A program made the translations under genes and the position numbers. From Heptranchias perlo (taxonomy: Eukaryota), in contig NC_090346.1 in assembly GCF_035084215.1 (NCBI RefSeq), forward strand, positions 48,546,001 through 48,610,000: 64,000 bases of DNA. Direction: 5' to 3'. The notes beneath the pieces are model-generated. The model made no database searches. It worked only from the letters and a program-made list of their open reading frames with translations, and was not told the origin of the DNA. Of the stretch, positions 2,843-50,559 are shown one piece after another (the stretch's first letter is position 1; every line of letters starts with the position of its first letter).

Positions 2843-2907
2843 CTCAGACTGCCACCAACAGCTTCTATGCCACGAGTTATTCTGAATGACGAAGCTCCCT
2901 TTGTGGT
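2843..2907 (-). CDS. UQCRC2: UQCRC2 coding exon 4 (TTKGASSFRITRGIEAVGGSLS)
   Basis: 65-nt AG/GT exon, near identical to the vertebrate UQCRC2 peptide. Confidence 0.96.
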
Positions 2908-3309
2908 CTGTAAAACAAAACAGGCTCTGGTTAAATTTGAATGATCAAGATCGATACCAAACTGAGTTCTGTACTCTAAATTCAATCTCTACTAAAATGT
3001 TATAGTTTACGTTGAAATGTTGCATTGCAAGTGTGTTAATACAAAACCCACGGTTACCATCGATAGATGTTGATAACATACTTTGGATATCGGTAATTTA
3101 ATCAGTAAAGAATCAATTAATCTTCACATATGGATAAAATATTGGCAATGAAAGCTTTGCAGACAAATGTCTTTAACGAACACTCGAGCCTCATTTAATG
3201 GCTTGGGGAAACGAGTTCTTAAAATGTTTTCTTGCGGTGCTCTCAACCCTCTTGGTCTATTACAATAGTTGTTTATAGTCATGGATGGACTGTGCTAGAT
3301 GCTTTCCAT

Positions 3310-4860
3310 CCAGCTCCCTCCACGTGATATCAAGAAACGGCTGAGTGCACTGGATACAGCAAAGGCTATGGGCCCGGACAACCGGACATCCCGGCTGTGG
3401 TGCTGAAGACTTGTGCTCCAGAACTAGCTGCACCTCCAGCCAAGCTGTTCCAGTACAGCTACAACACTGGCATCTACCCGACAATGTGGAAAATTGCCCA
3501 GGTATATCCTGTCCACAAAAAGCAGGACAAATCCAATCCGGCCAATTACCGCCCCATCAGTCTACTCTCAATCATCAGCAAAGTGATGGAAGGTGTCGTC
3601 GACAGTGCTATCAAGTGGCACTTACTCACAAATAACCTGTTCACCGATGCTCAGTTTGGGTTCCGCCAGGACCACTCGGCTCCAGACCTCATTACAGCCT
3701 TGGTCCAAACATGGACAAAAGAGCTGAATTCCAGAGGTGAGGTGAGAGTGACTGTCCTTGACATCAAGGCAGCATTTGACCGAGTCTGGCACCGAGGAGC
3801 CCTAGTAAAATTGAAGTCAATGGGAATCAGGGGGAAAACTCTCCAGTGGCTGGAGTCATACCTAGCACAAAGGAAGATGGTAGTGGTTGTTGGAGGCCAA
3901 TCATCTCAGCCCCAGGACTTTGCTGCAGGAGTTCCTCAGGGCAGTGTCCTAGACCCAACCATCTTCAGCTGCTTCAACAATGACCTTCCCTCCATCATAA
4001 GGTCAGAAATGGGGATGCTCGCTGATGATTGCACAGTGTTCAGTTCCATTCACAACCCCTCAAATAATGAAGCAGTCCGTGCCCGCATGCAGCAAGACCT
4101 GGACAACATCCAGGTTTGGGCTCATAAGTGGCAAGTAACATTCGCGCCAGACAAGTGCCAGGCAATGACATTCAATGGCATTACCTTCACCGAATCCCCC
4201 ACCATCAACATCCTAGGGGTCACCATTGACCAGAAACTTAACTGGACCAGCATATAAATACTGTGGCTACAAAAGCAGGTCAGAGGCTGGGTATTCTGTG
4301 GTGAGTGACTCACCTCCTGACTCCCCAAAGCCTTTCCACCATCTACAAGGCACAAGTCAGGAGTGTGATGGAATACTCTCCACTTGCCTGGATGAGTGCA
4401 GCTCCAACAACACTCAAGGAGCTCGACACCATCCAGGACAAAGCAGCCCGCTTGATTGGCACCACCCTAAACATTCACTCCCTTCACCACCGGCGCACAT
4501 TGGCTGCAGTGTGTACCATCCACAGGATGCACTGCAGCAACTCGCCAAGGCTTCTTCGACAGTGCCTCCCAAACCCGCGACCTCTACCACCTACAAGGAC
4601 AAGAGCAGCAGGCACATGGGAACAACACCACCTGCACGTTCCCCTCCAAGTCACACACCATCCTGACTTGGAAATATATCGGCATTCCTTCATCGTCACT
4701 GGGTCAAAATCCTGGAACTCCCTTCCTAACAGCACTGTGGGAGAACCTTCACCACACGGACTGCAGCGGTTCAAGGCGGCGGCTCACCACCACCTTCTCA
4801 AGGGCAATTAATGCCGGCCTCTCCAGCGACGCCCACATCCCATGAACGAATAAAAAAAAA
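3310..4860 (+). mobile_element. 5'-truncated LINE family A copy (RT domain, frameshifted)
   Basis: NYRPISLL, GVPQGSVL and ADD RT motifs; A-rich tail at 4850-4860. Confidence 0.92.
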
Positions 4861-16997: not shown

Positions 16998-17404
16998 CTG
17001 AAAACAAGAATTATTGACAATCAACGATAAGGGAGAGATTACTGGGCTTTGTTTACACTTTGCACTAAAGAAAACCTGGAATAGAATTAGCACAGTCTAA
17101 AGAATTCAGCAGCTAACCAGACAGCTTAAGCAGTTTAAGAAAAACACAGTCACAGCCTTGGTTACAATCACAGTTGCTATGGGACAGGTAGTGCAGTGAA
17201 TTGAGAGGCAGCAGAGGTTTTATTACATGATCTTCAAGAATGATAGTTAAGTAAAACTAGACTTGAAAAGATCAGCTCAATTGTCTTCACTACACTCATG
17301 TTCACTGATCCCACCTCCCAAAAGTACCAATTAGTGCCCCAAGGGCATTTGAACATTGCAGCCCCCTAGCAACATCTCCATCCTGTTTCTATGGCACATT
17401 TACA

Positions 17405-17690
17405 AGAACAACTCTCATTTATATAGCACCTTTAATGTAGTAAAACGTCCCAAGGCACTTCACAGAAGTGTAATCAAACAAAAAAAATTGACACTGAGCC
17501 AAAGGAGGCGATATTAGGTCAGGCGACCAAAAGTTTGGCCAAAGAGGTAGGTTTTAAGGAGCAACTTAAAAAGGAGGGGAGAGAGGTGAAGAGGTTTAGG
17601 GAGGGAATTCCAGAGCTTAGGGCTTAGGCAGCTGAAGGCCCGGCTGCCAATGGTGGAGCGAAGGAAGTCGGGCACGAGAGGCCAGAACTG
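17405..17690 (-). mobile_element. L2-like LINE 3' fragment
   Basis: Shared with 24785-25220 and 53200-53440 (GGRAFSCLGPKLWNSIP-type C-terminus). Confidence 0.65.
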
Positions 17691-19190: not shown

Positions 19191-19710
19191 TGCTTCTGCT
19201 GCAACAACTTGCATTTATATAGAGTCTTCAACGTAATAAATTGTCCCAAGGCGCTTCACAGGAGCGTAATCAGACACAAACTGACACCGAGCCAAAGAAT
19301 GACACATTAGGACACGGCTTCTCACCTCTCTCTCTTCCTGGGTTTTTAGTCTGACTGGATTTCCAAACACTTTGTGCAGAAGTCAACCTTCATTCTCATG
19401 CACTATATTGCTTGGTTGGCTGGGTCTGATGATGTGGACTTCACATCTATCCAGCATAAGTTTCTAAAGCAATGACTTTTTTTAAAAAGCTATTGGGGAT
19501 AACAAGCTCATTACTTGCCGACTAGGACAGATCTAATTAACAAGCACCAACTTAAAGTAAAAGAAGTCCAAGAACTTGGCACTTCCAAAAATGTACCCCT
19601 CTTACTACATACAATCATGCCAATATAAACAAACCAGCAAATTGTAAAACAAATCCTTAATGTGCAAGGGTCTATTCAAAAGTACAAATTCCCTTACAGC
19701 ATTGTTTAGA

Positions 19711-22700
19711 CGGTAGCATAGTGGTTATGTTACTGGACTCGTAATCCAGAGGCCTGGACTAATCATCCGGAGTCATGAATTCAAATTCCACCACGGCAGC
19801 TGGGGAATTTAAGATTCAATTAATTAAATAAAATCTGGAATTAAAATACTAGTATCAGTAATGGTGGCCATGAAACTACTGGATTGTCATAAAAACCCAT
19901 CTGGTTCACTAATGCCCTTTAGGGAAGGAAACCTGCCGTCCTTACCCAGTCTGGCCGATTTGTGACTCCAAACCCACAGCAACGTGGTTGATTCTTAATT
20001 GCCCTCTGAAATGGCCTAGCAAGCCACTCAGTTGTAAAATCTCGCTTAAAAAAAAAGTCAAAGAATAAAACCGGACAGACCACCCGGCATCGGACCACTA
20101 GACAAGACAAACCAAGCCCAGTCGACCCGACAAAGTCCTCTTCACTAACAGCTGGGGACTTGTGCTAAAATTGGGAGAGCTGTCCCACAGACTAGTCAAG
20201 CAACAGCCTGACATAGCCATACTCACAAAATCATACCTTTCAGCCAACGTCCCAGACTCTTCCATCACCATCTCTGGGTATATACAGTCAGGAGGGAGCG
20301 GCCCTGGGAGTCCTCAACATTGACTCTGAACCTCATGAAATCTCATGGCATCAGGTCAAACATGGGCAAGGAAACCTCCTGCTGATTACCACCTACCACC
20401 CTCCCTCAGATGATGAGTCAGTCCTCCTCCATGTTAAGCACCACTTGGAGGAAGCACTGAGGGTAGCAAGGGCACAGAATGTACTCTGGGTGGGGGACTT
20501 CAATGTCCATCACCAAAAGTGACTCGGTAGCACCACTACTGACCGAGTTGGCCGAGTCCTGAAGGACATAGCTGCCAGACTGGGCCTGCGGCAGGTGGTG
20601 AGCGAACCAACACGAGGGAAAAACTTACTTGACCTCGTCCTCACCAATCTACCTGTCGCAAATGCTTCTGTCCATGACAGTATTGGTAGGAGTGACCATT
20701 GCACTGTCCTCATGGAGACGAAGTCCCGTCTTTGAACTGAGGATACCATCCAACGTGTTGTGTGACACTATCACCGTACTAAATGGGATAGATTCAGAAT
20801 AGATCTAGCAGCTCAAAACTGGGCAACCATGAGGCACCGTGGGCCATCAGCAGCAGCAGCAGAATTGTATTCCAGCACAATCTGTAACCTCATGGCCCGG
20901 CATATTACTCACTCTACCATTAGCCAGGGGATCAACCCTGGTTCAATGAGGAGTGTAGAAGAGCATGCCAGGAGCAGCACCAGGTGTACCTAAAAATGAG
21001 GTGCCAACCTGGTGAAGCTACAACTCAGGACTATATGCATGCTAAATAGCGGAAACAACATGCTATGGACAGAGCGAAGCGATTCCACAACCAACGGATC
21101 AGATCAAAGCTCTGCAGTCCTACCACATCCAGTCATGAATGATGGTGGACAATTAAACAACTAACTGGAGGAAGAGGCTCTGTAAACATCCCCATCCTCA
21201 ATGATGGCGGAGTCCAGCACGTGAGTGCAAAAGACAAGGCTGAAGCATTTGCAACCATCTTCAGCCAGAAGTGCCAAGTGGATGATCCATCTCAGCCTTC
21301 TCCCGATATCCCCACCATCGCAGAAGCCAGTCTTCAGCCAATTCGATTCACTCCACGGTGATATCAAGAAACGGCTGAGTGCACTGGATACAGCAAAGGC
21401 TATGGGCCCCGACAACATCCCAGCTATAGTGCTGAAGACTTGTGCTCCAGAACTAGCTGCGCCTCCAGCCAAGCTGTTCCAGTACAGCTACAACACTGGC
21501 ATCTACCAGACAATGTGGAAAATTGCCCAGGTATGTCCTGTCCACAAAAAGCAGGACAAATCCAATCCGGCCAATTACCGCCCCATCAGCCTACTCTCAA
21601 TCATCAGCAAAGTGATGGAAGGTGTCATCGACAGTGCTATCAAGCGGCACTTACTCACCAATAACCTGCTCACCGATGCTCAGTTTGGGTTCCGCCAGGG
21701 CCACTCGGCTCCAGATCTCATTACAGCCTTGGTCCAAACATGGACAAAAGAGCTGAATTCCAGAGGTGAGGTGAGAGTGACTGCCCTTGACATCAAGGCA
21801 GCATTTGACAGAGTGTGGCACCAAGGATCCCTAGTAAAATTGAAGTCAATGGGAATCAGGGGGAAAACTCTCCAGTGGCTGGAGTCATACCTAGCACAAA
21901 GGAAGATGGTAGTGGTTGTTGGAGGCCAATCATCTCAACCCCAGGGCATTGCTGCAGGAGTTCCTCAGGGCAGTGTCCTGGGCCCGACCATCTTCAGCTG
22001 CTTCATCAATGACCTTCCCTCCATCATAAGATCAGAAATGGGGATGTTCGCTGACGATTGCACGGTGTTCAGTTCCATTCGCAACCCCTCAAATAACGAA
22101 GCAGTCAGAGCCCACATGCAGCAAGACCTGGACAACATCCAGGCTTGGGCTGATAAGTGGCAAGTAACTTTCGCGTCAGACAAGTGCCAGGCAATGACCA
22201 TCTCCAACAAGAGAGCGTCTAACCACCTCCCCTTGACATTCAACGGCATTACCATCGCTGAATCCCCCACCATCAACATCCTGGGGGTCACCATTGACCA
22301 GAAGCTTAACTGGACCAGCCATATAAATACCGTGGCTGCAAGAGCAGGTCAGAGGCTGGGTATTCTGCGGCGAGTGACTCACCTCCTGACTCCCCAAAGC
22401 CTTTCCACCATCTACAAGGCACAAGTCAGGAGGGTGATGGAATACTCTCCACTTGCCTGGGTGAGTGCAGCTCCAGCAACACTCAAGAAGCTCAACACCA
22501 TCCAGGACAAAGCAGCCCGCTTGATTGGCACCTCATCCACCACCCTAAACATTCACTCCCTTCACCACCGGCACACCGTGGCTACAGTGTACACCATCCA
22601 CAGGATGCACTGCAGCAACTAGTCAAGGCTTCTTCGACAGCACCTCCCAAACCCGCGACCTCTACCACCTAGGACAACAGCAGCAGGCACATGGGAACAA

Positions 22701-22948
22701 CAGCACCTGCACGTTCCCCTCCAAGTCACACACCGTCCCAACTTGGAAATATATCGCCGTTCCTTCATCGTCGCTGGGTCAAAATCCTGGAACTCCCTTC
22801 CTAACAGCACTGTGGGAGAACCTTCACCACATGGACTGCAGCAGTTCAAGAAGGCGGCTCACCACCACCTTCTCAAGGGCAATTAGGGGTGGGCAATAAA
22901 TGCCGGCGTCGCCAGCGACGGCCACATCCCATGAACAAATAAAAAAAA
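19711..22948 (+). mobile_element. Near full-length LINE family A: tRNA-like head, APE endonuclease + RT (stops/frameshifts), A tail
   Basis: PDIAILT.SYL, GDFNVHH, PTRGKNLLDLVLTN and SDH endonuclease motifs at 20140-20710; RT ORF 21225-22622 with FADD. Confidence 0.92.
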
Positions 22949-23510
22949 TTAAAATGTTATTATGAAACTATGGGCTGAGTCTTGGGTCACGTTATGTTGC
23001 TGCTGAAGAGAAATGGTTTTAAACCAACGGAAAAATTTACAGGGCTATGGGGAAAGAGCAGGGGAGTGGGAATAATTGGATAACTCTTTCAAACAGCCAG
23101 CACAGGCAAGATGGGCTGAATGGCCTCCTTCTGTGCAGCAGCTTGGAATGATCCCATTTCAGTATTGTCAGACACACACTAAGCAAGTCTTCCAAGTTTA
23201 CAAAGGGGGAGTGGAAATCTGGAACTCTCTCCCCCAAAAAGCTGTTGAGGCTGGGGGTCAATTGAAAATTTCAAAACCGAGATTGATAGATTTTTGTTAG
23301 GCAATAGTATTAATGGTTACAGAACCAAGGCAGATAGATGGAGTTAAGATACAGATCAGCCATGATCTAATTGAATAGCGGAACAGGCTCGAGAGGCTGA
23401 ACGGTCTATTCCTGTTCCTATGTTCACCAGGTTTATCTCAGTCCACTGTACAGTTTAAAAATGGACATTTTTAAAAAAGCGTCTTATCACCGCTAACTGC
23501 TTGTACCTAC

Positions 23511-23676
23511 CGATCCCATCCTTCTTCGCCTCCCAACACGTATATCTTGCCATCGATCACTGCCACCCCCGGCCGGTAGCGTCTCTCGTTCATGGGGGCG
23601 CACATCCTCCATGTGTTGGTCTTGGGGTTGTACTGCTCCACCTTGTCAGTGTTCTCTGTCGAGGCGTGCCAGCCAC
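23511..23676 (-). CDS. Kelch-like gene coding exon 7 (GWHASTENTDKVEQYNP...IYVLGGEEGWDR)
   Basis: 166-nt exon, phase 1 to 2, kelch repeat. Confidence 0.93.
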
Positions 23677-24784
23677 CTGGGGAGGAGATCCACCAATTTA
23701 CACACTCTGCAGATTCATTGCCACTTCCTAAACACGCATACCCTGTTCCCCACTGTCCCCATCCCCCCACTTACCGTTCTGTTAGTTTTCCACCGGGCAC
23801 CATTTGTGCCAAGTCCCACTCTACAATGTGGAGATCCGATTGCATAGAAGACGTGAAGGCAAGGAGCAGCTTCCCAGTGTGTTTACTGAACCCGGCTCCC
23901 TTAACCTGATGGCCCGTTCTTAAAATCTACAGTTCCATTCCTCTGGAGTGGTTCTCCAATAAGGATATTTATACGAAGCGAATGACCCAACAACTTCACC
24001 ACACAGACTGCAGCGGTTCAAGAAGGCAGCCCACCACCACCTTCTCAAGGGCAACAGTGGACAGGCAATAAATGCCGGCCTTGCCAGCAACACCCACATC
24101 CAGAGAATGAATAAAAAACACACACCTCCTGCAGACTGCAACCAACCAACACCACTTACAAAATGCACAAATATAGCAGGTACTGCACAGGAGGAGGCCA
24201 TTAGGCCCATCATGCTTGTGCCAGCTCTTTGAAAGAGCTATCCAATTAGTCCCATTTCCCTGCTCTTTCCCCGTAGCCCTGTAAATTTTTTCCTTCAAGT
24301 ATTTATCCAATTCCCTTTTGAAAGTTACTATTGAATCTGCTTCCAACACCCTTTCAGGCAGTGCATTCCAGATCATTACAACTCACTGCGTAAAAAAATG
24401 TTTCCTCATGGCGCCTCTGGCTCTTTTGCCGATTACCTTAAATCATTACCAGATTCATCCCCCCCCCCCCAAACATTTCTATCTCCGTCTTTTAAGTAGA
24501 CAGGCAACATTAAATTTCTTTCCAAATCTTTCATCAGCTGGTCATAAAGGGACTGCTCCATTTACACAAGGGGCCTCCACAGTAACCACTCCACAAGATT
24601 ATAATGCAACTAATCTTAATTACGGTGGGACAAAGTGTAGACAGCAATCAGATGTGTACAAATTCAGATTACAAGCCACTGAATGCAGAGGGTTTAGATA
24701 GGTTGGTTGTACGCTGATTTTTCTTGTTCATACTTAAATGCACTTCCTGCATTCATATTTATGAATTTAAATTCAATTCCAACA

Positions 24785-25220
24785 GCTTGCAGTTATAAAG
24801 CACCTTTAATGTAGTAAAACATCCCAAGGCACTTCACAAGAGCATTAACAGACAAAAATTGACACTGAACCACATAAGGACACGCTTGGTCAAAGAGGTA
24901 GGTTTTAAGGAGAGTCTTGGAGGAGAGAGAGGCAGAGAGGTTTAGGGAGGGAATTCCAGAGCTTAGGGTCCAGGCAGCTGAAGGCATGGCCGCCAATGGT
25001 GGAGCGATTAAAATTGGGAATGTGCAGAATTGGAGGAGCGCAGAGATGTCAGAGGGATGTAGGGCTGGAGTAGGCTACACAGAAAGGGAGGGGACGAGGC
25101 CATGGAGGGATCTGAACACAAGGGTGAGAATTTTTTTTTAAAAAGCAAGGCATTGCTCGACCAGGAGCCAATGTAGGTCAGCAAGCACAGGGGGTGATGG
25201 GTGAACGGAACATGGTGCGA
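24785..25220 (-). mobile_element. L2-like LINE 3' fragment
   Basis: Similar to 17405-17690. Confidence 0.65.
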
Positions 25221-26501: not shown

Positions 26502-26668
26502 CTGCCAGAGGGGGAAAAGATAATCAGTGCAATTCCTCGTACCAAACAGGGCGCTGTACAAACTGCGCAAGCTTTATTACCAACGGAAGTACACTGACTG
26601 ATATTGTTGGTTTATACACTGGACTCTCACCTCCATTAGCTAGGTTCAAAACTAGCCCAGCTGGGTAT

Positions 26669-27060
26669 GGTAGCATAGTATATTACTGGACTAGTAATCT
26701 AGAGAGTGTGTGAATTCAAATCCCATCGTAGCAGTTTGAGAATGTAAATTTGTTTTTATAAAAATATCTGGAAATAAAAAAAACTGATATCAGTAAGTGA
26801 CCATGAAGCTGTCGGATTGTCGTAAAATCCCAACTGGTTCACTAATGTCCTTTAAAGAAAGAAACTTGCCGTCCTTACTTGGCCTATATGTAACTCCAGT
26901 CCCACACCAACGTGGCTGACTCTTAACTGCCCTCTGAAGTGGCCCAGCAAGTATCTCAGTTGTATCAAACCCACTACCAGCAGTTTAAGGCAGCGGCCCA
27001 CCACCACCTTCTCAGGGCATCTAGGGATGGGTCAATAAGCAATGCCTAAATCTTGGGAAT
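26669..27060 (+). mobile_element. tRNA-headed SINE sharing both the 5' region and 3' tail with LINE family A
   Basis: Collinear with 19712-20035, then joins CCACCACCACCTTCTCAGGGCA..GGGATGGG of the LINE tail. Confidence 0.8.
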
Positions 27061-28808
27061 TAATTTTAAAAAGCCCAATAGAATGAAAGTCTCCCAAGGG
27101 TAGCTGGCCACGAGGATCCGACATTAAAGGGAGTTTGTGCAGTCACAGCCCAGTGGCCCAAAGTGCAAACCTAGAATGAGTTGGCAAACCAGAGAGGCCA
27201 AGGCACTGCAGATGTGGAAATGGCAATGTTGCAGCAGGGGTGTTCATGAGGCATAGTACAGGGAGCTTTATTCCATTTAGTTGCACCACACTCGTAAGTG
27301 CGAGTGATCAATGCACAACTAAAATACAAAGCGTTCTATTCTCCAGCCCAAACATAACCTCACCTCGACCCTAAAGTTCTTGCAAGCATAACAAAAACAA
27401 ATGGGGATGAGATTAAGTGGACAGCTGTTTCAGAGAACCAGAATAGGCTTGATGGGCCCAATGCCCTGTAAAATTCTATGATTCTATTTCAGGTAGAGGC
27501 CGAGCACTGGGTTTACAGCTCCTGGAAAATTTATTCAAAACTACTTTTTTTTTTTGAAAAAGAAAAGGCATTTGTTACTAAAATCTGCTCTCAATATTTC
27601 CTCTGGTTCAGTCTCACTATTGTGAACAGGTTTGAGGTCAGTGGGCCAAGGTTTGCAAAGGTCCGTTTGTTGTCTCACTGGTGCATTAATCCCAAAATCA
27701 GAACATCCAGATCTGTCAGTATCAGCAACTTGAGGTGTGTGCAAATACACAGTAGCACAGATTTAAACTGGAGTCTTCCCCTGCCCAAGACTCTAAGTGA
27801 AACACAGACAAAGAACTTGGAGACAACCTGTGCAATGAGCTAGTGTCGCGGTACCCGTTTTCCACCAACGAAGGGAGCTCTGTCCTCAGACACCATCGGA
27901 GCCGATCTTGTAACACGTCTAAAGATCAAATCACGTTCTGGGGAAACCCCAGCAAGAGAATAATTGCTCACTGTAGAAACCAGCTTGCATTGGTTGTTGA
28001 GAATTTAGCTTCATTGACCTGTAGGTTGCCCATCACACCACATGCTGGCTCTCTCAAAGAGTTAACCCCATTCCCCCGCACTCTCCGTGGCCTTAAAGTT
28101 TTTCTAAATTCAAATATTTATCCACTTTCCTTTTAAAAGCTATTGTGGATTCTGCTTCCGCCACTGTTTCTGCTGGGACATCAGCCAGCTATCATCAGAG
28201 CCCGTGACTGTCCTCCTCACCTCTAACGTGGGGACATGAACCCACATTAGAGGGACTGTCCACGGTCGCTCTTTCATTGACCTGTTCTGTACTCCGGCTC
28301 CGTCACCCCTTGCAGATTCGTGGAGGCCGCTGTCTAATTCAAGGATTAGCTCATCCACCTTTTGATGGCATTTCCTCTATCCAGTCGAAGCCATGGGCAC
28401 TCTGGAGGTCACCGGGTCACTTAACCCCCGCCTGGCACCCAGTGTTCGCAGGTAGCACTGTCTAGGCTCATTAATCGGTAACTGGTTTTAAAGACCTGAC
28501 CCAGTCACCTTGGTACCACATCCACGTCCTAAAGATCCCTGGTGTCTACAATCATTCCCAACCTCTGGCCTTCGCTCGCGAGGCTACTGCCCTCATCTCA
28601 GATGTTTATCCATGCCTGTCCTGCAGGAGGCACCATTCAGCTCACACTAGATGTACACACACGATGGAAAAAAGCTGGAGTATTGAGCAGTCCTGGGAAT
28701 CAATTCGTTTTCTGGGTGGGAATCCAAGCCAGGGAACTTTAAAAGTTTTAAGAAATACTATAATGTGCCCTAAAGAGGGATACAGTGATTTTTGATAAAC
28801 GTGATTAC

Positions 28809-34214: not shown

Positions 34215-34810
34215 TTAAAAAATTTGTTCATGGGATGTGGGCGTCACTGGCGAGGCCAGCATTTATTGCCCATCCCTAATTGCCCTCGAGAAGGTGGTGG
34301 TGAGCCGCCTTCTTGAATCGCTGCATTCCGTGTGGTGAAGGTTCTCCCACAGTGCTGTTAGGAAGGGAGTTCCAGGATTTTGACCCAGCGACGATGAAGG
34401 AACAGCGATATATTTCCAAGTCGGGATGGTGTGCGACTTGGAGGGGAACGTGCAGGTGGTGTTGTTCCCATGTGCCTGCTGCCTTTGTTCTTCCAGGTGG
34501 TAGAGGTCGCGGGTTTGGGAGGTGCTGTCGAAGAAGCCTTGGCGAGTTGCTGCAGTGCATCCTGTGGATGGTACACACTGCAGCCACAGTGTGCCGGTGG
34601 TGAAGGGAGTGAATGTTTAGGGTGGTGGATGGGGTGCCAATCAAGCGGGCTGCTTTATCTTGGATGGTGTCGAGCTTCTTGAGTGTTGTTGGAGCTGCAC
34701 TCATCCAGGCAAGTGGAGAGTATTCCATCACATTCCTGACTTGTGCCTTGTTGATGGTGGAAAGGCTTTGGGGAGTCAGGAGGCGAGTCACTCGCTGCAG
34801 AATACCCAGG
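34215..34810 (-). mobile_element. 5'-truncated LINE family A copy
   Basis: ORF 34276-34818 matches the RT C-terminal region; family A tail. Confidence 0.9.
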
Positions 34811-34979
34811 TGCCACATTTACTCTATTATTCAACGAGGTCAACTCATGAACACGCTGGCTGTTCAACTGATACACGCTTCATGTCTTCAACCACGTTTT
34901 ACCGTGCACACATCAGGATATTACACAAATGCACCCATGTGGAGGGAAAGTTACATTCACTGGGAAGGTTTTCGATATT

Positions 34980-35420
34980 TGTTCTCTGACGTGGGCAGCA
35001 CTGGCAAGGCCGTATTTACTGCCCAGCCCTAGGTGCCCTGAAGGTGGTGGTTGTGGGATATCTTTTGTAACGATTGCTTTACAACCTGGTGGTTTGCTAG
35101 GCCACTTTAGAGGGCACCAAGCATCACATTGGACTGGAGTCACGTATAGGCTAGGCCGGGTAAGGGTGGCAGATTCTCTTCCCTAAAGGGCATCTGTAAA
35201 CAATTTTACAACACCAAGTTATAGTCCAGCAATTTTATTTTAAATTCACAAGCTTTCGGAGGCTACCTCCTTCCTCAGGTGAACGATGTGGAAAACATCT
35301 TCCCTAAAGGGCATCAGTGAACCAGTTGGGTTTTTACGACAATCCAACAGCTTCATGGTCCTTTTTTTTTTGCTGGTTCCAGCCCACAAGTTACCAGATT
35401 TATTGGATTAAATTTCAACC
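34980..35420 (-). mobile_element. Second family-A-related SINE, interrupted by a Penelope-like fragment (35195-35297)
   Basis: Reverse complement of the 26669-27060 structure; 18-bp direct repeat TCTTCCCTAAAGGGCATC at 35177 and 35298. Confidence 0.75.
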
Positions 35421-37465: not shown

Positions 37466-40400
37466 TTTCTTTACCTCTTTAAGGCCACAAGCTCTAATTC
37501 ATGCAACATCCCACTCAGCAGCTGCTGAGGAAATTTCTTTTTTTAAGAACAAAAATGTCAGTGTTTGATACACAAAGTATCTCCCACCTCCCTGATTGAA
37601 TAATCCACCAGCATACACTGGCCAGGCTCGCAACATGAAGAATGGTCACATGGACAAAGTTGGGTCGGGTACCGGAGAGTTATCAGCCCCAGTTGAACTG
37701 TACCCCATGAGCTACCTTTGGGAAAAATATTGGGAGGCACAGTAAAAGCAACTTGTTCTTCTGTAAAAAGGCAACAACAAAAAAAAAACATCTCTTGGGC
37801 TGACAGCCAAGGGCAAGCTGTTCAACTTCATAATACAACTGGTTACAAGCAACCGTTGTACATGAAACGGTTGCTATTGACTCTGCATGCTCCAGGGGAC
37901 CTCGAGGGTTAAAGGTTCTCCAATAAACGTACAATTAACTTGGTAGATAAACGCTTGCGTCAGAACTCGAGACAGTAAACAGGTTGTACGTGTGATCTCT
38001 CTTCTAATTACTCATGTGGCGACCGAATGAAATACCAACGAACAATCTTTTAACACTGTCAACGTGAGACACACCTTTGGATATATTGGTACGGACGAAA
38101 GTGCACCCATCCAAATAAATCAAGGAACATAAGCTTGGATCAGGATTATGGTTTTAAAATTGGTGTTAGCATTACCAGTTTCTAATGGCAGTGAATAGGG
38201 GGCAGCTGTGGTATTGCTGACTGCCCCATAACAGCAGGAATGGGTGGTGGTTTGGTATATCCAATTTCTATGGTCTAAAGAAGCATGCATCCATCTGGAG
38301 CCAACTCTCGTTGAACAGGAACATCTCATTATAGTCACTGCAGACGACTAGAGCCAACAACTTTCTGGGCATTTAACCTTTGTCTGAGTGAAACTATTTT
38401 CTATGGGTTACAATACATTAGGGAAAAGAATATTCTATTTAATTGTGGGGTTCAGAAAGGATGATGTACACCTTCACAACACAATCGCACCAGAGTCCAA
38501 TCGGGCACTGCTTCAAGACTTGGACAAGCAAACTCCCCAACTCAAGACATCCAAATCCCGGGTCATTGCTGCTGACCAACATTTCCTGAAGCAGCACCGT
38601 TAACACGTCTCTTTGCAGCTGGTCGAAGGGCAACGATGGTAGAAGTTGGACATGTCTCAGTCGCTCCTCTTAATTACCATTCGTTGTTTTAGAATGACAG
38701 GTTAGGGGCCGGCCAAGAGCAGCCATTTTATGTAGAAAAATTCCTCCCATGTTATCGTTCACTTCTGCTGATCAACGTCATGCACAAGGGCAGTGGAGTA
38801 AGGGGTAAATTTTCACCCACAGCTGCCTGATTCAGGCACGGGTGCTACCAGAGTCGTGGCTGACATCGAGGAACTGGATTGCTTCTGCAGCTGGAGCTCC
38901 AAACAGAGAATTATATATATTTTCTCCCTCCCCCACCTGACTCTGATGTCTTAAAGACAGTCTCTGATGCCCAGGAGCCATTTCCTCCGACTGACATGGG
39001 GACTGATCTAATGGGATATCATCTGCACCCTCCTGGTGTAAATTTTAAAATTCATTCTTGGGATGTGGGGGTTGCTGGCAAGGCCGGCCTTCATTGTCCA
39101 GAGAAGGTGGTGGCGGGCCGCCTTCTTGAACCACTGCAGTCCGTGTGGTTTTGCAGCAGTTAGTTACAACTGAATGGATTGCCAAACCAATTCACAGGTC
39201 AGTTACGAGTCAACAATACTCACTGCTCAGGCTGACAGTAAGAAAGAACAGCCATTGGGTGAGGTACTGGAAGAGACAGCACTCATGGAACTGAATCCCA
39301 GCACAACCCAGCACAGATACAGATTTGGCACTGCCAGTTTATGGAGCCCCCCCTCCCCCATGTCAATAAGGGGCCTGCCTGCCTTAGCCTGGAATTGGCT
39401 ATCAGACCAGCAGATCCTTCCCTGTCTAATGCTAGAAGCTTCTGAACAGAGGTTGGAGGCAGGAACCAGAGTTAAGTATTGCTCTCACTCAACTTCTGCT
39501 GAATTTTAAACACCCTCGAAACAGAATCTTTCACTTTTTCCTATTTTTTTTGGATACAAAGGGAAATCTGGACAGCAACAAAAGAAAACTGTCTTTTCTT
39601 CTGACAGTGTTATCGGTCCAACAGATTCAACATATACCAGTCCTGGACTCGCAGTACCCAACATCTAGAAACCAGAACTGAAAAGCTACACAACAGACAC
39701 ATCCTGCAACTTGCCACACTTATCACAGCTATAGTGCAAATAATGTCATTGGAGGTCAATATTCCCAAAATTAAAGAAAGTTACAGATCAGAGAGCAAAC
39801 CCAGAAAACAAATCTGAAAATTGCTGGTGAGGAAGACAAAAAATTCATGGCGAAAATACAACAGAAGGGAGAGGGATTCAAAGATGGGAAAGGAATGGGA
39901 GAGCATTTGAAAGCTGCTTTTATACAATTATTATTGGAGTAATACCTACTGACAGGAAGAAGTTTGCCAACATCACAAGAATTGAACTGATATCAATCCA
40001 GACAGCCCAAGTAACCCAGAGCTTCATAAGTTAACTTACAAGCTTCTAGACACCAACCTTGCTGCAGTATCGGCTGTTAATGCTCGTCTGTATCAATATG
40101 GCAGTAAGATTACTGAGCAGAGCTCTCTCCAACCCTATCCCGTCAGATACAGTTTCTTTAAAAGGGACAGCATTCTTAGTAAGGGGAGGGAGAGAGAGAA
40201 ATAAGAACAGCGTTGTTATTTTCCACCACAATGATAGCTTTCTAACAGAATGAGGCAATTCAAAATAAAACTACAATCACTGTAGCATCTGGCAAACAAA
40301 ACACATTAAAAAAGAAAAGTATCTGATCAAATTTAAAACAATGGCACTTTCACATGGTGAGAGGAAGAGAAGAAACATTATCTAACTACACTGCGTCAAT

Positions 40401-41290: not shown

Positions 41291-42221
41291 AATAGGAACA
41301 ATCTGCAGTGAAATGCAAGGTTAATAGAATAGAATTACAACACAGGCACAGATCCTTCAGCCCAACCAGTCCGTGTTGGTGTTTATCCTCCTCACGAGCA
41401 GTAATCCTAATCCCAGCATTTTGGGAGGTAGTGAAAGGCGCTATATAAATGCAAGTCTTTCTTTCATGTACCCGCCCTGTTCCCATATACTTTCATCCCC
41501 CTTTCCTTCAACCACCTATCTAACCTGTTCTTAAATGTTGACACAGCCTCTGCTTCAATCACTAACTCCGGTAATGCATTCCACAACCCTCTGTGTAAAG
41601 AAGTTTCTCCTACTTTCTGTCCTAAATCTCTTACAACATCATCAATTTGCATTAACATAGCACCTTTAATGTATTAAAATGTCCCAAGGCACTTCACAGG
41701 AGCAAAATCAAACATAATTTCACATTTAGCCTTATATCTATGTCCTCACATTCTAGACCCATCAGGAGAAATAATTTCCATTACTTTGCCTCATCCCTTC
41801 ATAATTTTAAATACTTCCATCAAACCAACCCACAATCTCCTCTATTCTAATGAAAACAGCTCCAATTTTCCAAGTCTTTCTTCCTATCTGTATTCCCTCC
41901 TCCCAGGCAGTAACCCCGTGAATCTGCACTGTACCCTCTCTATTGCCTCAACATTATTAACAGTTACTGCTGATATTTTCCAAACTGCCAGTGATAAAGA
42001 TAGTTATGTGCGACACGGCATCAATACAATGAAATTGGACAAATGGAGTATTTAAAACAGAAAATGTCAGAAATGCTAAGGAGGCCAATCAGCAAGTTGA
42101 AGGGAAAGAAATTAAGTCATTATATAATACTGTATATTAATGTAAAAAGTCATATTTTCAAATGAAAACTTACAAATTGAATGTTTAAAAAATAATTTTT
42201 ACGTTTATATGTAAACATACC

Positions 42222-44430
42222 ATAGAATCACAGGAAGTTTTGGCACAGAAGGAGGCCATTCAGCCCATTGTGTACATGCTGGCCGAAAAAGATCTATCCA
42301 GCTTAATCCCACTTTCCAGCACTAGGTCCTTAGCCCTTCAAGTGCACATCCAAGTACTTTTCAAATGAGTTGAGGGTTTCTGCCTCTCCCACCCTCTCAG
42401 GCAGTGAGTTTCAAACCCCCACCATCGTCTGGGTGAAAATATTTCTCCTCAGCTCCCCTCTAATCCTTCTACCAATTACTTTAAATCTATGCCCCCTGGT
42501 CACTGACCACTCTGCTAAGGGAAATAGTTCCTCCCTATCCACTCTATCTAGTCCTGTCATAATTTTATATACCTCAATTAAATCTCTCCTCAGCCTCCTT
42601 TGTTCCAAAGAAAATAACCCCAACCTATCCAATCTTTTCTCACAGCTAAAATTCTCCAGTCTTGGCAACATCCTCGTAAATCTCCTCTGTACCCTCTCTA
42701 GTGCAATCATATCTTTCCTGTAATGTGGTGACTAGAACTGTACGCAGTACTCTAGCTGTGGCCTAACCAATGTTTTATGTAGTTCTAGCATAACCTCCCT
42801 GCTCTTATATTCTATGCCTCGGCTAATAAAGGAAAATATCCCGTATGCCTTTTTAACCATCTTATCTACCTGTCCTGCTACCTTCAGGGATCTGTGGACA
42901 TGCACTCCAAGGTCCCTTTGTTCCTCTACACCTCTCAGTATCCTCCCATTTATTGTGTACTCCCTTGCCTTGTTTTCCCTCCCCAAATGTATTACCTCAC
43001 ACTTCTCGGGATTGAATTCCATTTGCCACTTTTCTGCCCACCTGACCAGTCCATTGATATCTTCCTGCAGTCTACAGCTTTCCTCCTCACTATCAACCAC
43101 ACGGCCAATTTTTGTATCATCTGAAAACTTCTTGATCAAGCCCCCCACATTCAAGTCCAAATCATTAATATATACCACAAAAAGCAAGGGACCTAGTACT
43201 GAGCCTTGCGGGACCCCACTGGAAACAGCCTTCCAGTCGCAAAAACACCAGTCAACCATTACCCTTTGCTTCCTGCCACTGAACCAATTTTGGAACCAAC
43301 TAGCCACTTTCCCTTGGATCCCATGGGCTTTTACTTTTTTGACCAGTCTGCCATGTGGGACCTTGTCAAAAGCCTTGCTAAAATCCATGTACACTTCATT
43401 GAACGCGTTACCCTCATCAACCCTCCTTGTTACCAGCTCAAAAAATTCAATCAAGTTAGTCACAACCATCCCTTAACAATGATGTGGAGATGCCAGTGAT
43501 GGACTGGGGTGGACAAATGTAAGGAATCTTACAACACCAGGTTATAGTCCAACAATTTTATTTTAAAATCACAAGCTTTCGGAGATTATCCCCTTCGTCA
43601 GGTGAATTTCACTCATTTACCTGACGAAGGGGATAATCTCCGAAAGCTTGTGATTTTAAAATAAAATTGTTGGACTATAACCTGGTGTTGTAAGATTCCT
43701 TACATTTTTCCCTTAACAAATCCACGCTGACTTGATTAACCCGTGCCTTTCCAAATGATGATTTATGCTGTCACTGAGAATCGATTCCAATAATTTGCCC
43801 ACCACCGAGGTTAGACTGACTGGCCTATAATTACTCGGTCTATCTCTTTCTCCCTTTTTAAACAATGGTACAACATTAGCAGTCCTCCAATCCTCTGGCA
43901 CCATGCCTGTAGCCAGGGAGGATTGGAAAATGATGGTCAGAGCCTCCACTATTTCCTCCATTGCTTCTCTTAGCAGCCTGGGATACATTTCATCCGGGCC
44001 TGGCAATTTATCTACTTTCAAAGATGCTAAACCCTTTAATGCTTCCTCTCTCACTATGTTTATCCCATCCAATATTTCACACTCCTCAACTACAATCTCT
44101 GCATTGTCCCCCTCTTTTGTGAAGACAGATACAAAGTATTCATTAAGAACCATACCCACATCTTCTGCCTTCACACAGAGGTTACCTTTTTGGTCTCTAA
44201 TAGGCCCTACTCTTTCCTTAATTATCCTCTTGCTCTTTATGTATTTATAAAACATTTTTGGGTTTTCCTTAATTTTACTTGCCAGTATTTTTTCATGCCA
44301 TCTCTTTGCTTTCCTAATTTCCTTTTTAATTTCACCCCTGCACTTTTTATACACCTCTAGGCTTTCTGCAGTATTGAGCTCTCGGTGTCTAACAAAGCTT
44401 CCCTTTTTTGCCTTATCTTACCCTGTATGC
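42222..44430 (-). mobile_element. 5'-truncated CR1 LINE (RT, disrupted)
   Basis: ORFs 43713-44354, 42732-43469 and 42411-42710 with YMDFSKAFDKVPH, GVPQGSVLGP and FSDD motifs. Confidence 0.93.
43480..43708. mobile_element. Penelope-like perfect hairpin insertion with hammerhead cores, 11-bp target duplication
   Basis: 89-bp perfect inverted arms 43515-43603 / 43619-43707; TCCCTTAACAA at 43469 and 43709. Confidence 0.8.
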
Positions 44431-45209: not shown

Positions 45210-48200
45210 TTTTTTTATTATTCATTCATGGGATGTGGGCGTCGCTGGCGAGGCTGGCATTTATTGCCCATCCCTAATTGCCCTTGAGAAGGTGGTGGTG
45301 AGTCGCCTTCTTAAACCGCTGCAGTCCGTGTAGTGAAGGTTCTCCCACAGTGCTGTTAGGTAGGGAGTTCCAGGATTTTGACCCAGCGACGCTGAAGGAA
45401 CGGCGATATATTTCCAAGTCGGGATGGTGTGTGACTTGGGTTTGGGAGGTGCTGTCGAAGAAGCCTTGATGAGTTGCTGCAGTGCATCTTGTAGATGGTA
45501 CACACTGCAGCCTGTGTTGATGGTGGGGGACTCGGCAATGGTAATGTCAAGGGAGGGGTGGTTAGACTCTCGTTGGAGATGGTCATTGCCTGGCACTTGT
45601 CTGGCGTGAATGTTACTTGCCATTCAGTTATGAGCCCCAGCCTGGATGTTGTCCAGGTCTTGCTGCATGCGGGCACGGACTGCTTCATTATCTGAGGGGT
45701 TGCGAATGGTGTGCTGGTGGTGGAGGGAGTGAATGTTTAGACTCTCGTTGGAGATGGTCATTGCCTGGCACTTGTCTGGCGCGAATGTTACTTGCCATTC
45801 AGTTATGAGCCCCAGCCTGGATGTTGTCCAGGTCTTGCTGCATGCGGGCACGGACTGCTTCATTATCTGAGGGGTTGCGAATGGTGTGCTGGTGGTGGAG
45901 GGAGTGAATGTTTAAGGTGGTGGATGGGGTGCCAATCAAGCGGGCTGCTTTGTCCTGGATGGTGTCGAGCTTCTTGAGTGTTGTTGGAACTGCACTCATC
46001 CAGGCAAGTGGAGAGTATTCCATCACACTCCTGACTTGTGCTTTGTAGATGGTGGAAAGGCTTTGGGGAGTCAGGAGGTGAGTCATTTGCCGCAGAATAC
46101 CCAGCCTCTGACCTGCTCTTGTAGCCACAGTATTTATGTGGCTGGTCCAGTTTAGTTTCTGGTCAATGGTGACCCCCAGGATGTTGATGGTGGGGGATTC
46201 GGCGATGGTAATGTCAAGGGGGGGGGGTGGTTAGACTCTCGTTGGAGATGGTCATTGCCTGGCACTTGTCTGGCGCGAATGTTACTTGCCATTCAGTTAT
46301 GAGCCCCAGCCTGGATGTTGTCCAGGTCTTGCTGCATACGGGCACGGACTGCTTCATTATCTGAGGGGTTGCAAATGGAACTGAACTCTGTGCAATCATC
46401 AGCGAACATCCCCATTTCTGACCTTATGATGGAGGGAAGGTCATTGATGAAGCAGCTGAAGATGGTTGGGCCTAGGACACTGCCCTGAGGAACTCCTGCA
46501 GCAATGTCCTGAGGCTGAGATGATTGGCCTCCAACAACCACAACCATCTTCCTTTGTGCTAGGTATGACTCCAGCCACTGGAGAGTTTTCCCCCTGATTC
46601 CCATTGACTTCAGTTTTACTAGGGCTCCTTGATGCCACACTCAGTCAAATGCTGCCTTGATGTCAAGGGCAGTCATTCTCACCTCACTTCTGGAATTCAG
46701 CTCTTTTGTCCATGTTTGGACCAAGGCTGTAATGAGGTCTGGAGCCGAGTGGTCCTGGCGGAACCCAAACTGAGCATCGGTGAACAGGTTATTGGTGAGT
46801 AAGTGGCGCTTGATAGCACTGTCGACGACACCTTCCATCACGTAGAATGATGGGGCGGTAATTGGCCGGATTGGATTTGTCCTGCTTTTTGTGGACAGGA
46901 CAATATTCCGGGCTACAGAATCTTCAGGCGAGACAGAGGGGGAGGTATAAGAGGAGGGGGGGTCGCAATATTAATTAAAGAATCAATTACTGCCATAAGG
47001 AGGGATGATATATTAGCAGGTTCCTCTAATGAGGCCATATGGGTGGAGCTTAAAAACAAAAAGGGGGCAAGCACTTTGATGGGAGTGTACTATAGGCCCC
47101 CAAACAGTCAGGGGGAGATCGAGGAACAGATATGTAGGCAAATCTCAGAAAATTGTGCAAATAATAGGGTAATAATCGTGGGGGATTTCAACTTCCCCAA
47201 TATTAACTGGGATACTCAGAGTGTAAAAGGCTTAGAGGGTACAAAATTCTTAACGTGCATCCAGGAGAGCTTTTTGAGCCAGCATGTAGAAAGTCCTACA
47301 AGAGAGGGGGCGGTACTGGACCTAATTCTAGGGAATGTGGCCGGCCAAGTGGAAGAAGTGCTAGTAGGTGAGCACTTTGGTGACAGTGACCATAATTCGG
47401 TGAGATTTAAGGTGGTCATGGAAAAGGACAGGGAGGGGCCGGAAATAAAGGTTCTAAATTGGGGGAAGGCCGATTTTAATAGGATAAGGCAGGATCTGGC
47501 CAAAATGGACTGGGATCAGCTGCTTGTAGGAAAATCCGCATCGGAGCAATGGGAGTCTTTCAGAAGGGAGATTGAGACCATACAATGGCAACATGTTCCC
47601 GTAAAGGTCAAGGGTGGTTCCAAGAACTCCAGGGAACCTTGGATGTCAGGGGATATACGAGAATGGATTAGGAAAAAAAGGAGGGCTTTTGGCAGATACA
47701 AAAGGCTAAAGACGGAGGAAGCCCTAGAGGAGTACAAAAAGTGCAGGGGGATACTTAAAAAAGAAATTAGGAGATCAAGGAGGGGCCATGAAATAACACT
47801 GGCGAGCAAAATAAAGGAAAATCCTAAGATGTTTTATAAGTATATTAAGGGTAAGAGGATGACTAGGGAAAAAATAGGGCCCATTAGGGACAAAAATGGC
47901 AATCTGTGTGTGGAGCCGGCAGATGTAGGAGGGGTTCTAAATGAATTTTTTGCATCTGTTTTCACTCTGGAGAAGGACGATGTAGACATAGAAATACGGC
48001 AGGGGGACTGTGATATACTCGAACATATTAACATCGAGCGGGAGGAGGTATTGGCGGTTTTAGCAGGCCTAAAAATGGATAAATCCCCAGGCCTGGACGA
48101 AATGTATCCCAGGCTACTGTGTGAGGCAAAGGAGGAGATTGCGGGGGCTCTGACACATATATTCAGAACCTCTCTGGCCACAGGGGATGTGCCAGAGGAC

Positions 48201-50045
48201 TGGAGAACCGCTAATGTAGTACCATTATTCAAGAAGGGGAGTAGGGAAAAACCGGGGAACTACAGGCCAGTGAGCCTAACATCAGTGGTAGGAAAAATAT
48301 TGGAAAAAATTCTGAAGGACAAAATTAGTCTCCACTTGGAGAAGCAAGGATTAATCAGGGATAGTCAACATGGCTTTGTCAAGGGAAGATCATGTCTGAC
48401 TAATTTGATTGAATTTTTTGAGGGGGTGACTAGGCGTGTGGATGAGGGTAACGCAGTGGATGTGGTATACATGGATTTCAGTAAGGCCTTCGATAAAGTC
48501 CCCCACTGGAGACTGGTCAAGAAGGTACGAGCCCATGGAATCCAGGGTGCCTTGGCACTTTGGATACAAAACTGGCTTAGTGGCAGAAGGCAGAGGGTGA
48601 TGGTCGAAGGTTGTTTTTGTGACTGGAAGCCTGTGGCCAGTGGGGTACCACAGGGATCGGTGCTGGGTCCCTTGCTGTTTGTGGTCTACATTAATGACTT
48701 GGATATGAATGTAAAAGGTATGATCAGTAAGTTCGCTGATGATACAAAGATTGGTAGGGTGGTAAATAGTGAGGAGGATAGCCTCAGTCTGCAGGACGAT
48801 ATAGATGGGTTGGTCAGATGGGCGGAACAGTGGCAAATGGAATTTAACCCGGAAAAGTGCGAGGTGATGCACTTTGGAGGGACTAACAAGGCAAGGGAAT
48901 ACACAATGAATGGGAGGACCCTAGGCAAGACAGAGGGTCAGAGGGATCTTGGTGTGCAAGTTCACAGATCCCTGAAGGCGGCGGAACAGGTAGATAAGGT
49001 GGTAAAGAAGGCATATGGGATACTTGCCTTTATTAGCCGAGGCATAGAATATAAGAGCAAGGAGGTTATGATGGAGCTGTATAAAACACTGGTTAGGCCA
49101 CAGCTGGAGTACTGTGTGCAGTTCTGGTCGCCACACTACAGGAAGGATGTGATCGCTTTGGAGAGGGTGCAGAGGAGATTCACCAGGATGTTACCAGGGC
49201 TGGAGCGCTTCAGCTATGAAGAGAGACTGGGAAGATTGGGTTTGTTTTCCTTGGAGCAGAGGAGGCTGAGGGGGGACATGATTGAGGTGTACAAAATTAT
49301 GAGGGGCACAGATAGGATGGATACTAAGGAGCTTTTTCCATTCGTTGAGGGTTCTATAACAAGGGGACATAGATTCAAGGTAAAAGGCGGGAGGTTTAGA
49401 GGGGATTTGAGAAAGAACTTTTTCACCCAGAGGGTGGTTGGAGTCTGGAACTCACTGCCTGAAAGGGTTGTGGAGGCAGGAACCCTCACAACATTCAAGA
49501 AGCATTTGGATGAGCACTTGAAATGCCATAGCATACAAGGCTACGGACCAAATGCTGGAATATGGGATTAGAGTAGACAGGGCTGATGGCCGGCGCGGAC
49601 ACGATGGGCCGAAGGGCCTCTATCCGTGCTGTATGACTCTATGACTCTATGACATACCTGGGCAATTTTCCACTTTGTCGGGTAGATGCCAGTGTTGTAG
49701 CTGTACTGGAACAGCTTGGCTAGAGGTGCGGCTGGTTCTGGAGCACAAGTGTTCAGCACTACAGCTGGGATGTTGTCGGGGCCCATAGCCTTTGCTGTAT
49801 CCAGTGCACTCAGCCGTTTCTTGATATCACGTGGGGTGAATCGAATTGGCTGAAGACTGACTTCTGTGATGGTGGGGATCTCGAGAGGAGGCCGAGATGG
49901 ATCATCCACTCGGCACTTCTGGCTGAAGATGGTTGCAAACGCTTCAGCCTTGTCTTTTGCACTCTGCCATCATTGAGGATAGGGATGTTCACAGAGCCTC
50001 CTCCTCCTGTTAGTTGTTTAATTGTTCACCACCATTCACGACTGA
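45210..50045 (-). mobile_element. LINE family A copy, internally rearranged and split by a CR1 insertion
   Basis: RT sequence continues across 46902/49651 (..AQVC|PVHKKQDK..). Confidence 0.9.
46903..49650 (+). mobile_element. Young CR1 LINE, 5'-truncated within the endonuclease, otherwise uninterrupted ORF2
   Basis: Open frame from the junction to the stop at 49571 (YYRPP, GDFN, SDH, FADD); (TATGACTC)n tail; GACA on both sides. Confidence 0.96.
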
Positions 50046-50559
50046 GCAATGTTTGACCGGGGTGAAAATCTATTAAGATTTTCAGACTGTCATTACGTTT
50101 TAGCTTAAAGCCATTGATTTAAAGTCCCCAGTGATTATTAGCTTACAATGACTATAATTGTCACAACCTCTCTTACTTTGCTTTCCCCTTGTTTACCCTG
50201 CGTCACCTTTATCATGACTCATTTCCAGTCTTAATCCTTCTGCACATCTCTTGTTCTGTTTCATGTTTATCCTTTTGATAACCGTTGTGTCATCCCTTAC
50301 CAATAGTCCACTCCACCACCCAGTTTAGGTAGGACCTAACTTTGAAATATTCTGCCCTCTCGACTCCATCTTGTACACACAGCCATATGTCTATAAAGAA
50401 AAAACTTGGATTTATACAGCACCATTCATGGCCTCAGGATTTTTTTTTATTCGTTCACGGGATGTGGGCGTCGCTGGCGAGGCCGGCATTTATTGCCCAT
50501 CCTTAATTGCCCACGAGAAGGTGGTGGTGAGCCGCTTTCTTGAACCGCTGCAATCCGTG

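Follow-up and report, generated by a model that had tools for sequence, protein, structure and literature searches.

A tRNA-like head at the 5′ end of elasmobranch Zenon LINEs and its possible use by RNA polymerase III

Introduction

Retrotransposons are usually divided into LINEs, which are protein-coding and rely on Pol II (RNA polymerase II) for their transcription, and SINEs, which are non-coding and rely on Pol III (RNA polymerase III). An element in a 64,000-nt stretch of the 3.25 Gb genome of Heptranchias perlo (this whole stretch is hereafter referred to as the window) raises the question of whether an autonomous LINE can itself start with a promoter of the SINE type. A sequence-only reading of the window had described a tRNA-like head with an A box and a degenerate B box, continuing directly into an endonuclease, a reverse transcriptase (RT) and an A-rich tail, and had proposed an autonomous family that captured a SINE or tRNA promoter. 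Here we ask which family the element belongs to, whether the head is the genuine 5′ end of that family and where it derives from, whether the coding region is under selection and how it could be translated, and which polymerase is likely to make the RNA.

The Window Element and Its Family

The element is a decayed, near-full-length LINE on the plus strand at 19710-22948 (3,239 nt). Its single ORF (20038-22886), broken in this copy, comprises a basic leader, an APE endonuclease domain (approximately 20147-20699) and an RT domain (approximately 21549-22295), the two domains being mapped over from an intact copy, where they match PF03372 plus PF14529 and PF00078 (E 1e-37) respectively. The ORF is followed by a 3′ UTR (22887-22948) with a possible stem-loop, an AATAAA (22895-22900) and a short A tail. 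As the sequence-only reading had it, the head thus leads into endonuclease, RT and A tail with no room for an ORF1, and in the window copy no separate SINE tail stands between head and ORF. The GGGT at the 5′ end of the family is lost in this copy, so that the true start lies ~4 nt further upstream, and no target-site duplication of at least 6 nt was found around it. The window copy, 94.9% identical to the intact copy L099, carries frameshifts and stops and is dead. A Kelch-repeat exon (PF01344, E 1e-15) lies ~600 nt downstream on the minus strand (23510-23770), and the element is therefore probably antisense in or beside a kelch-family gene.

Elasmobranch Zenon, a member of the CR1 group, has been described as lacking ORF1 and carrying a poly-A tail, the latter being unique to Zenon among CR1-group elements, and is represented by seven shark and ray consensuses of 2,886-3,314 letters from five species (SquAca_Zenon-1 to -3, and CarCar_, RhiTyp_, ScyCan_ and HypSab_Zenon-1) (Stuart et al., 2026; PMC13343379). 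By eye, the first 400 nt of our element match these consensuses nearly letter for letter. Our element likewise has APE and RT in a single ORF, no ORF1, and a short A tail on the retrieved copies with complete 3′ ends, and elasmobranch Zenon as published is the same in being ~3.3 kb long with one APE-RT ORF, no ORF1 and a poly-A tail, with no sequence difference in the portions compared. Judged by these features and the sequence match, the window element belongs to the elasmobranch Zenon family. Apart from one H. perlo protein, homologues of its ORF are 28-42% identical and largely unnamed, with crustacean names among them, in line with the published grouping as far as it is given in PMC13343379, and the ORF is 25% identical to that of a young CR1-like LINE in the window. 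That NCBI protein, named “aldo-keto reductase 1B1-like” (P0085), includes 213 aa with 93% identity to the LINE ORF, and its gene model is probably an annotation chimera.

Since the family is Zenon, the missing ORF1 and the poly-A tail were already known. What is new here, relative to the published passages, is the tRNA-type head, the loss of T-runs and the AUG-less ORF. The word “tRNA” has no match in the main text and readable supplement of PMC13343379 (for the consensus sequences, their first 400 letters), and a tRNA head, Pol III boxes, T-run depletion, a missing AUG and a 5′ rod go unmentioned in the available passages of that paper. A whale shark preprint (10.1101/443036), in the part available, gives counts of CR1-Zenon and nothing more, and PMC5499810 and PMC1513397, in their available parts, describe other shark repeats. 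In the freely accessible literature covered, including text of PMC7245038, PMC11481361, PMC12193147 and 10.1101/788562, we found no report of a tRNA-headed autonomous LINE; short head motifs likewise had no match in the main texts searched or in a hagfish SINE supplement.

Besides this element, the window holds long 5′-truncated Zenon copies at 3315-4859, 34222-34809, 45212-46902 with 49651-50044, and 53441-54877, and short Zenon tails at 214-394, 1169-1321, 23994-24118, 39039-39149, 50441-50578 and 61497-61615. Another dispersed repeat family occurs at 17401-17672, 19202-19314, 24780-25134, 41640-41724, 53220-53436 and 54878-55012, and presumably resembles the tail of Deu-type SINEs and L2.

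The Head as the 5′ End of the Family

A query composed of head and endonuclease retrieved 39 other matches, every one of which starts within 5 nt of one base. As such a query selects for the junction itself, we used two junction-blind samples: the 29 copies closest to the endonuclease alone, and the first 30, in genome order, of the 5,745 sites that exactly match a 17-mer located where the endonuclease begins. Pooled, with one duplicate dropped and collinear pieces chained, these gave 58 copies, of which 33 start at family positions 1-30 and the other 25 are 5′-truncated. None of the 58 carries an alternative 5′ UTR or an ORF1, and their upstream flanks share no common alternative 5′ end, containing only scattered matches at differing offsets that resemble other repeats. 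An older subfamily, whose copies are ~80% identical to one another, shares head, body and junction, and in DNA runs of organisms C and D a sharp boundary falls at the same base (628 and 461 loose ends, respectively). The head is the real 5′ end of the family.

The count of headed full-length copies that the sequence-only reading had called for came out in its favor, and it bears on the possibility that SINE insertions, by chance or recurrently, or template switches placed heads ahead of LINEs that were truncated and headless. As this explanation would have it, there are short elements bearing this head, but the junction is constant within each subfamily, no full-length headless form is present in the 58 copies, and the same arrangement is found in the available parts of the consensuses from five other species. 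We regard this explanation as hardly credible, and for H. perlo a chance adjacency of SINE and LINE is ruled out by the constant junction and the 0/58 headless full-length copies, short of both samples having missed some distinct autonomous master without a head.

Origin and Conservation of the Head

The head (19710-19800) holds a Pol III type-2 A box, TAGCATAGTGG, at 19714-19724 (~+9 to +19 from the family's 5′ end), which agrees at 11/11 positions with the consensus TRGYnnARBGG as quoted in PMC7279448, and a B box at 19778-19788, which is degenerate here through two private changes from the family's AGTTCAAATCC. ARAGORN calls no tRNA in the head, and the Rfam tRNA model matches it weakly, scoring 16.9 bits on the window head and 18.8 on an intact copy against a gathering score of 29. 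Nevertheless, a tRNA-Gln(CTG) gene of H. perlo (L255) can be aligned with the head of the intact copy from end to end, scoring 58.9, compared with 47.7 for the best of 2,000 shuffles, and the A box of the head occupies the same position as in the aligned tRNA. By this alignment the head derives from tRNA-Gln, its anticodon arm being present twice (19733-19749 and 19754-19770), and the earlier description of a tRNA-like head with both boxes is borne out. Because of the duplication, the distance between the boxes is long, the B box lying ~50 nt beyond the A box rather than at the usual spacing of 30-40. With a CpG o/e of 0.50 and a GC content of 0.43, the head does not qualify as a CpG island. 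Matches to a tRNA-Gln(TTG) anticodon-arm motif recur by the dozen at ~3.1-kb spacing on contig G000:C38 (~2.5-8.9 Mb), which suggests tandem tRNA gene arrays, and contig C1377 has a dense cluster of the CTG form.

Between old and young subfamilies, 1/30 columns differ in the 5′ end with the A box and 0/12 in the B box, compared with 5/19, 20/56 and 10/45 in neighboring segments, just 3-7 old copies covering this region. Within their first 400 nt, all seven elasmobranch consensuses open with an A box and then a motif resembling a B box; the B box is perfect in 3/7, and it is kept across sharks and rays though the spacer preceding it differs. The first 400 nt of the hagfish and coelacanth Zenons, inspected by eye, have no such head and contain runs of four T. 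The head appears to be ancestral to sharks and rays, which split ~250-300 million years ago. Among more distant relatives, ARAGORN gave one doubtful match among 30 of 80 metagenome loci, which says little, because the same tool overlooks the Zenon head.

The tRNA-derived head with A and B boxes is what is found in SINE2 elements, but those are also short, non-coding and dependent on a partner LINE, a description that suits only the short derivatives of this family and not the 3.3-kb element.

Coding Capacity and Recent Activity

An intact ORF of 973 codons, stop to stop, is present in 3 of the 20 copies retrieved whole, with 98.5-98.8% mutual identity, and on an intact copy PF03372 covers aa 43-243 and PF00078 aa 528-776. 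In the endonuclease region, pN/pS is 0.06 between young and middle-aged copies (5 synonymous changes, 1 non-synonymous) and 0.22 and 0.24 in comparison with the old subfamily, while private changes give 0.47-0.70. These ratios support purifying selection on the Zenon ORF and, with the intact copies, an autonomous lineage. The basic leader that precedes the endonuclease likewise has the look of coding sequence: its pN/pS is 0.19 on few sites, and its net length changes are multiples of three in 75/100 changed copies, most of these changes being due to a tandem unit of 15 nt and a single shared difference of 3 nt. A search that used an old RT fragment to look for a diverged second family retrieved nothing but young copies of Zenon itself.

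The autonomy proposed by the sequence-only reading is upheld, as is the head as true 5′ end. The capture of a SINE is just one possible route, since the short forms mostly look like deletion products of the LINE (see below), and the head may stem directly from a tRNA-Gln transcript. Recent activity had been deduced from “near-identical” 3′ copies in the window; the long copies there are 90-94% identical and do not bear this out, but the 98.5-98.8% identical copies outside the window do support it.

Translation of an ORF Without an Early AUG

In intact copies, the first AUG of the ORF occurs at codon 248-250, after the endonuclease. A mini-ORF, ATG-GCC-TAG, precedes the ORF in its phase (20011-20037, with a second stop, TAA, at 20035-20037), its ATG lying nine codons before the ORF. 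Most of 134 copies have this upstream ATG stopped at codon 3, codon 9 or both, and ~10/134 have it open into the ORF. The stop at codon 9 is present in 15/15 copies at least 98.5% identical to L093, a selection that favors the subfamily of L093, and we reject the upstream ATG as the normal start of the young lineage, while it is open in a minority of copies. In 6/7 elasmobranch consensuses, as far as these were available, the leader contains a +1-frame ATG (equivalent to window ~20066) that opens a short overlapping ORF; the equivalent site in H. perlo reads ATA in old and young subfamilies alike. Given the ~10/134 open upstream ATGs and the published +1-frame ATG, AUG-based routes could also be used. 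In L099, ACG at codon 4 is the one near-cognate codon ahead of the endonuclease that is plausible as a start; as a universal start it was rejected, many middle-aged copies reading AAA there. The best database homologue, an unnamed protein with 38% identity, begins MATKK where the ORF reads LATKS, and this one homologue suggests that an old start codon may have been lost at the fusion point.

The conserved non-coding body preceding the mini-ORF (19882-20010), which matches no Rfam family, is a candidate translation-initiation element or Pol II promoter. The pre-ORF body is about as conserved between old and young subfamilies as the endonuclease (8/117 vs. 40/732 columns differ), and it appears near-invariant by eye in the available parts of the published shark and ray consensuses. 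From this we infer an IRES-like role for it; among LINEs, R2 elements offer a parallel for AUG-independent translation. With E cutoffs of 5 for the window and 10 for an intact copy, Rfam gave no match to an IGR-type IRES or an HDV-like ribozyme. A small hairpin can be drawn at 20011-20037, the loop of which could, speculatively, pair with the GCT codon just 3′ of it. The first base of the loop is T in 32 copies, C in 12, G in 6 and A in 5 with no matching change downstream, and we rejected this pseudoknot as anything but a lead.

A Predicted 5′ RNA Rod and the Distribution of Truncations

The first 389 nt of the intact copy L099 fold with z = -3.96, none of 100 shuffles being as stable, and the first 195 nt are predicted to form a long rod, closed in window coordinates by pairing of 19711-19750 with 19834-19881. 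Seven of the nine rod pairs that vary between subfamilies stay paired, and the CarCar consensus, by eye in the part available, has two double changes in the closing helix. Truncations at positions 31-468 cluster just outside the rod, with 10/21 copies ending at 196-250 (binomial P 9e-5 for a bin picked after seeing the data), which fits RT stalling at a real hairpin as modeled by the fold. The possible 3′ stem-loop, folded in the tail of the intact copy, is no more stable than shuffles (z = -0.51).

Short Forms Probably Derived From the LINE

Two old short forms are present in the window. The one at 26663-27072 (plus strand) consists of head and body joined directly to the 3′ tail of the LINE, as in a SINE-like derivative, and the other (34968-35400, minus strand) is 5′-truncated and interrupted by another repeat. 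A 17-mer of the body matches exactly at 11,960 sites, and among the first 30 of these, 18/30 continue into the ORF and 12/30 jump to the 3′ tail. The short-form junctions vary, several retaining the first bases of the young or of the old ORF, and organisms A, C and D have similar joints. The best reading is that the short forms arose repeatedly by deletion from the headed LINE and did not donate its head.

Depletion of T-Runs

Sense-strand runs of four T (T4), which could act as Pol III terminators, are absent from the window copy, which has 20 A4 runs, and from the four long 5′-truncated Zenon pieces in the window (4.6 kb). T4 runs become denser the older the copies are: per kb of coding sequence there are 0.00 in 46,241 nt from young copies, 0.10 in middle-aged and 0.46 in old ones, removal of duplicate loci being approximate in these counts, and 4.5 in a young CR1 of the window used as control. 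The check for T4 runs suggested with the sequence-only reading was favorable in young and middle-aged copies, but not in the head of the old subfamily (see below). None of the T4 sites in older copies recurs beyond a minority of copies, and the best-matching segment is T4-free in 18 of the 20 copies retrieved whole. In intact copies, the absence of T4 has P 0.006-0.02 under base-frequency nulls but falls short of significance (P ~0.08) under a null that preserves the codon usage of the element itself; 5-6 T3 runs are observed where 17 are expected (observed/expected 0.29-0.36). In a control set of 80 related metagenome loci, 59 of which have at least 1.5 kb matched, 0/59 related LINE regions are T4-free and the lowest observed/expected ratio for T3 is 0.58, the controls being mostly T-richer.

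The young CR1-like control LINE (46903-49570, plus strand) is a very young 5′-truncated copy with an 889-codon open frame, situated inside a minus-strand Zenon copy, and has 39 other matches that share ~99.8% identity across 600 nt. It is 73-76% identical to an older CR1-like LINE copy at 42243-44417 (minus strand).

The head of the old subfamily differs in this respect. With three young copies set aside, T4 or longer occurs at ~+115 in 8/9 old LINE copies scored (8/10 if L218 is included), whereas T3 was retained at a control site in 9/11; at ~+115, T4 or longer is found in 1/58 young heads and is absent from the published heads in the part available. This T-run would cut Pol III transcripts of the old subfamily unless it was leaky. 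Four T followed by A's form a weak Pol III terminator, and for this reason the T-run lowers a Pol III reading without refuting it. A possible RNA run (X6) was uninformative, yielding contigs of uncertain type with a 3′-heavy, DNA-like profile, and the raw-read run X23 yielded sparse diverged matches only.

Which Polymerase Transcribes Zenon?

On several indirect signs that converge, we consider it probable, with moderate confidence, that Pol III makes a ~3.3-kb Zenon RNA from the tRNA-type head and that the ORF is translated independently of AUG and cap. LINEs are stated to be Pol II-transcribed in the available text of PMC5786205, and the AATAAA and A tail at the 3′ end are as in Pol II LINEs, although they fit either polymerase. 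Zenon could accordingly be a Pol II LINE with a tRNA-derived 5′ UTR, the head having been gained once and kept for RNA structure or for a Pol II promoter in the body; its poverty in T-runs would then stem from biased codon use or from avoiding U-rich signals, with re-initiation after the mini-ORF accounting for translation. Besides the AATAAA and A tail, the T4-T6 in the head of the old subfamily, the conservation of the ATG-GCC-TAG mini-ORF and the P of ~0.08 obtained with the element's own codon usage speak for this explanation, as does the position of the A box within the predicted rod, since structure could account for part of its conservation. It does not readily explain why the B box is kept in the published shark and ray sequences despite a differing spacer, or why related LINEs have no comparable loss of T3 and T4 runs, and the head is no CpG island. 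On balance we think a purely Pol II origin of the RNA rather unlikely, but it is a serious alternative.

Pol III RNA is generally poorly translated, and the two polymerases might therefore share the work, Pol III at the head producing the short forms and perhaps some full-length template, and capped Pol II transcripts or host read-through producing the protein. The short forms are indeed common (12/30 of the body-selected copies), and many copies lie in host-gene introns, the window copy adjoining a Kelch exon. However, copies begin sharply at the head, and the master lineage whose ORF is under selection is also the one that has lost its T-runs, most simply explained by a single RNA serving as both message and template. 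Such a dual use strikes us as improbable.

Under the Pol III reading that we prefer, TFIIIC would bind the A and B boxes and Pol III would initiate at the first G, selection against Pol III terminators having removed the T-runs, and the transcript would continue into the flank up to a T-run. The conserved body would load ribosomes at about codons 2-4 of the ORF, and the ORF protein would bind the 3′ end and prime reverse transcription at the A tract. Stalling of the RT at the 5′ rod would produce the truncation cluster, and repeated internal deletions would give rise to short SINE-like forms that retain promoter and tail. Taken to its full extent, namely that thousands of shark and ray copies carry a Pol III-made 973-codon message, translated free of cap and AUG in an IRES-like manner, pre-dating the shark-ray split and giving rise to SINEs by deletion, the proposal is quite possible but put forward tentatively. 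If true, an autonomous LINE on a tRNA promoter would break the division between Pol II LINEs and Pol III SINEs, provide a natural long Pol III message with cap- and AUG-independent translation in a vertebrate, and offer a one-step route from LINE to SINE; if Pol II is used instead, a so far unremarked tRNA-derived 5′ UTR on a known family remains. Because intact natural copies exist (e.g., L093 and L099), the steps are directly testable.

Comparison With Known Systems

AUG-independent LINEs and the IGR IRES of dicistroviruses share with Zenon an AUG-less ORF after a conserved, probably structured RNA, although in the text available IGR-type IRESs are raised for LINEs as a possibility only (PMC3894237). 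Unlike the IGR IRES described there, the Zenon body has no Rfam match, and the likeness is confined to a 3-4 bp loop pairing without covariation.

The tRNA head, A and B boxes, conserved body and LINE-type tail are shared with SINE2 elements, including the shark HE1/HER1, SacSINE1 and the CmiSINEs with their partner L2-2_CM (PMC3747384, PMC5499810). Those SINEs, in the descriptions available, are non-coding and have only the tail in common with the partner LINE, whereas here the Zenon LINE itself bears head and body. Lepidopteran Zenon likewise yields short derivatives, Persaeus, from its 5′ and 3′ ends. Persaeus, which bears Zenon's 5′ end, is stated in the available passages to have neither tRNA homology nor a Pol III promoter (PMC6740152), while the deletion products here are SINE-like from the start. 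Similarly, bipartite non-autonomous LINEs have been proposed as SINE precursors and are also short, combining the two end portions (5′ and 3′) of a LINE (Kojima, 2018; PMC5786205). In that model, as far as the source was available, the LINE is Pol II-transcribed and a tRNA head is added after the deletion, whereas here the autonomous element is already headed.
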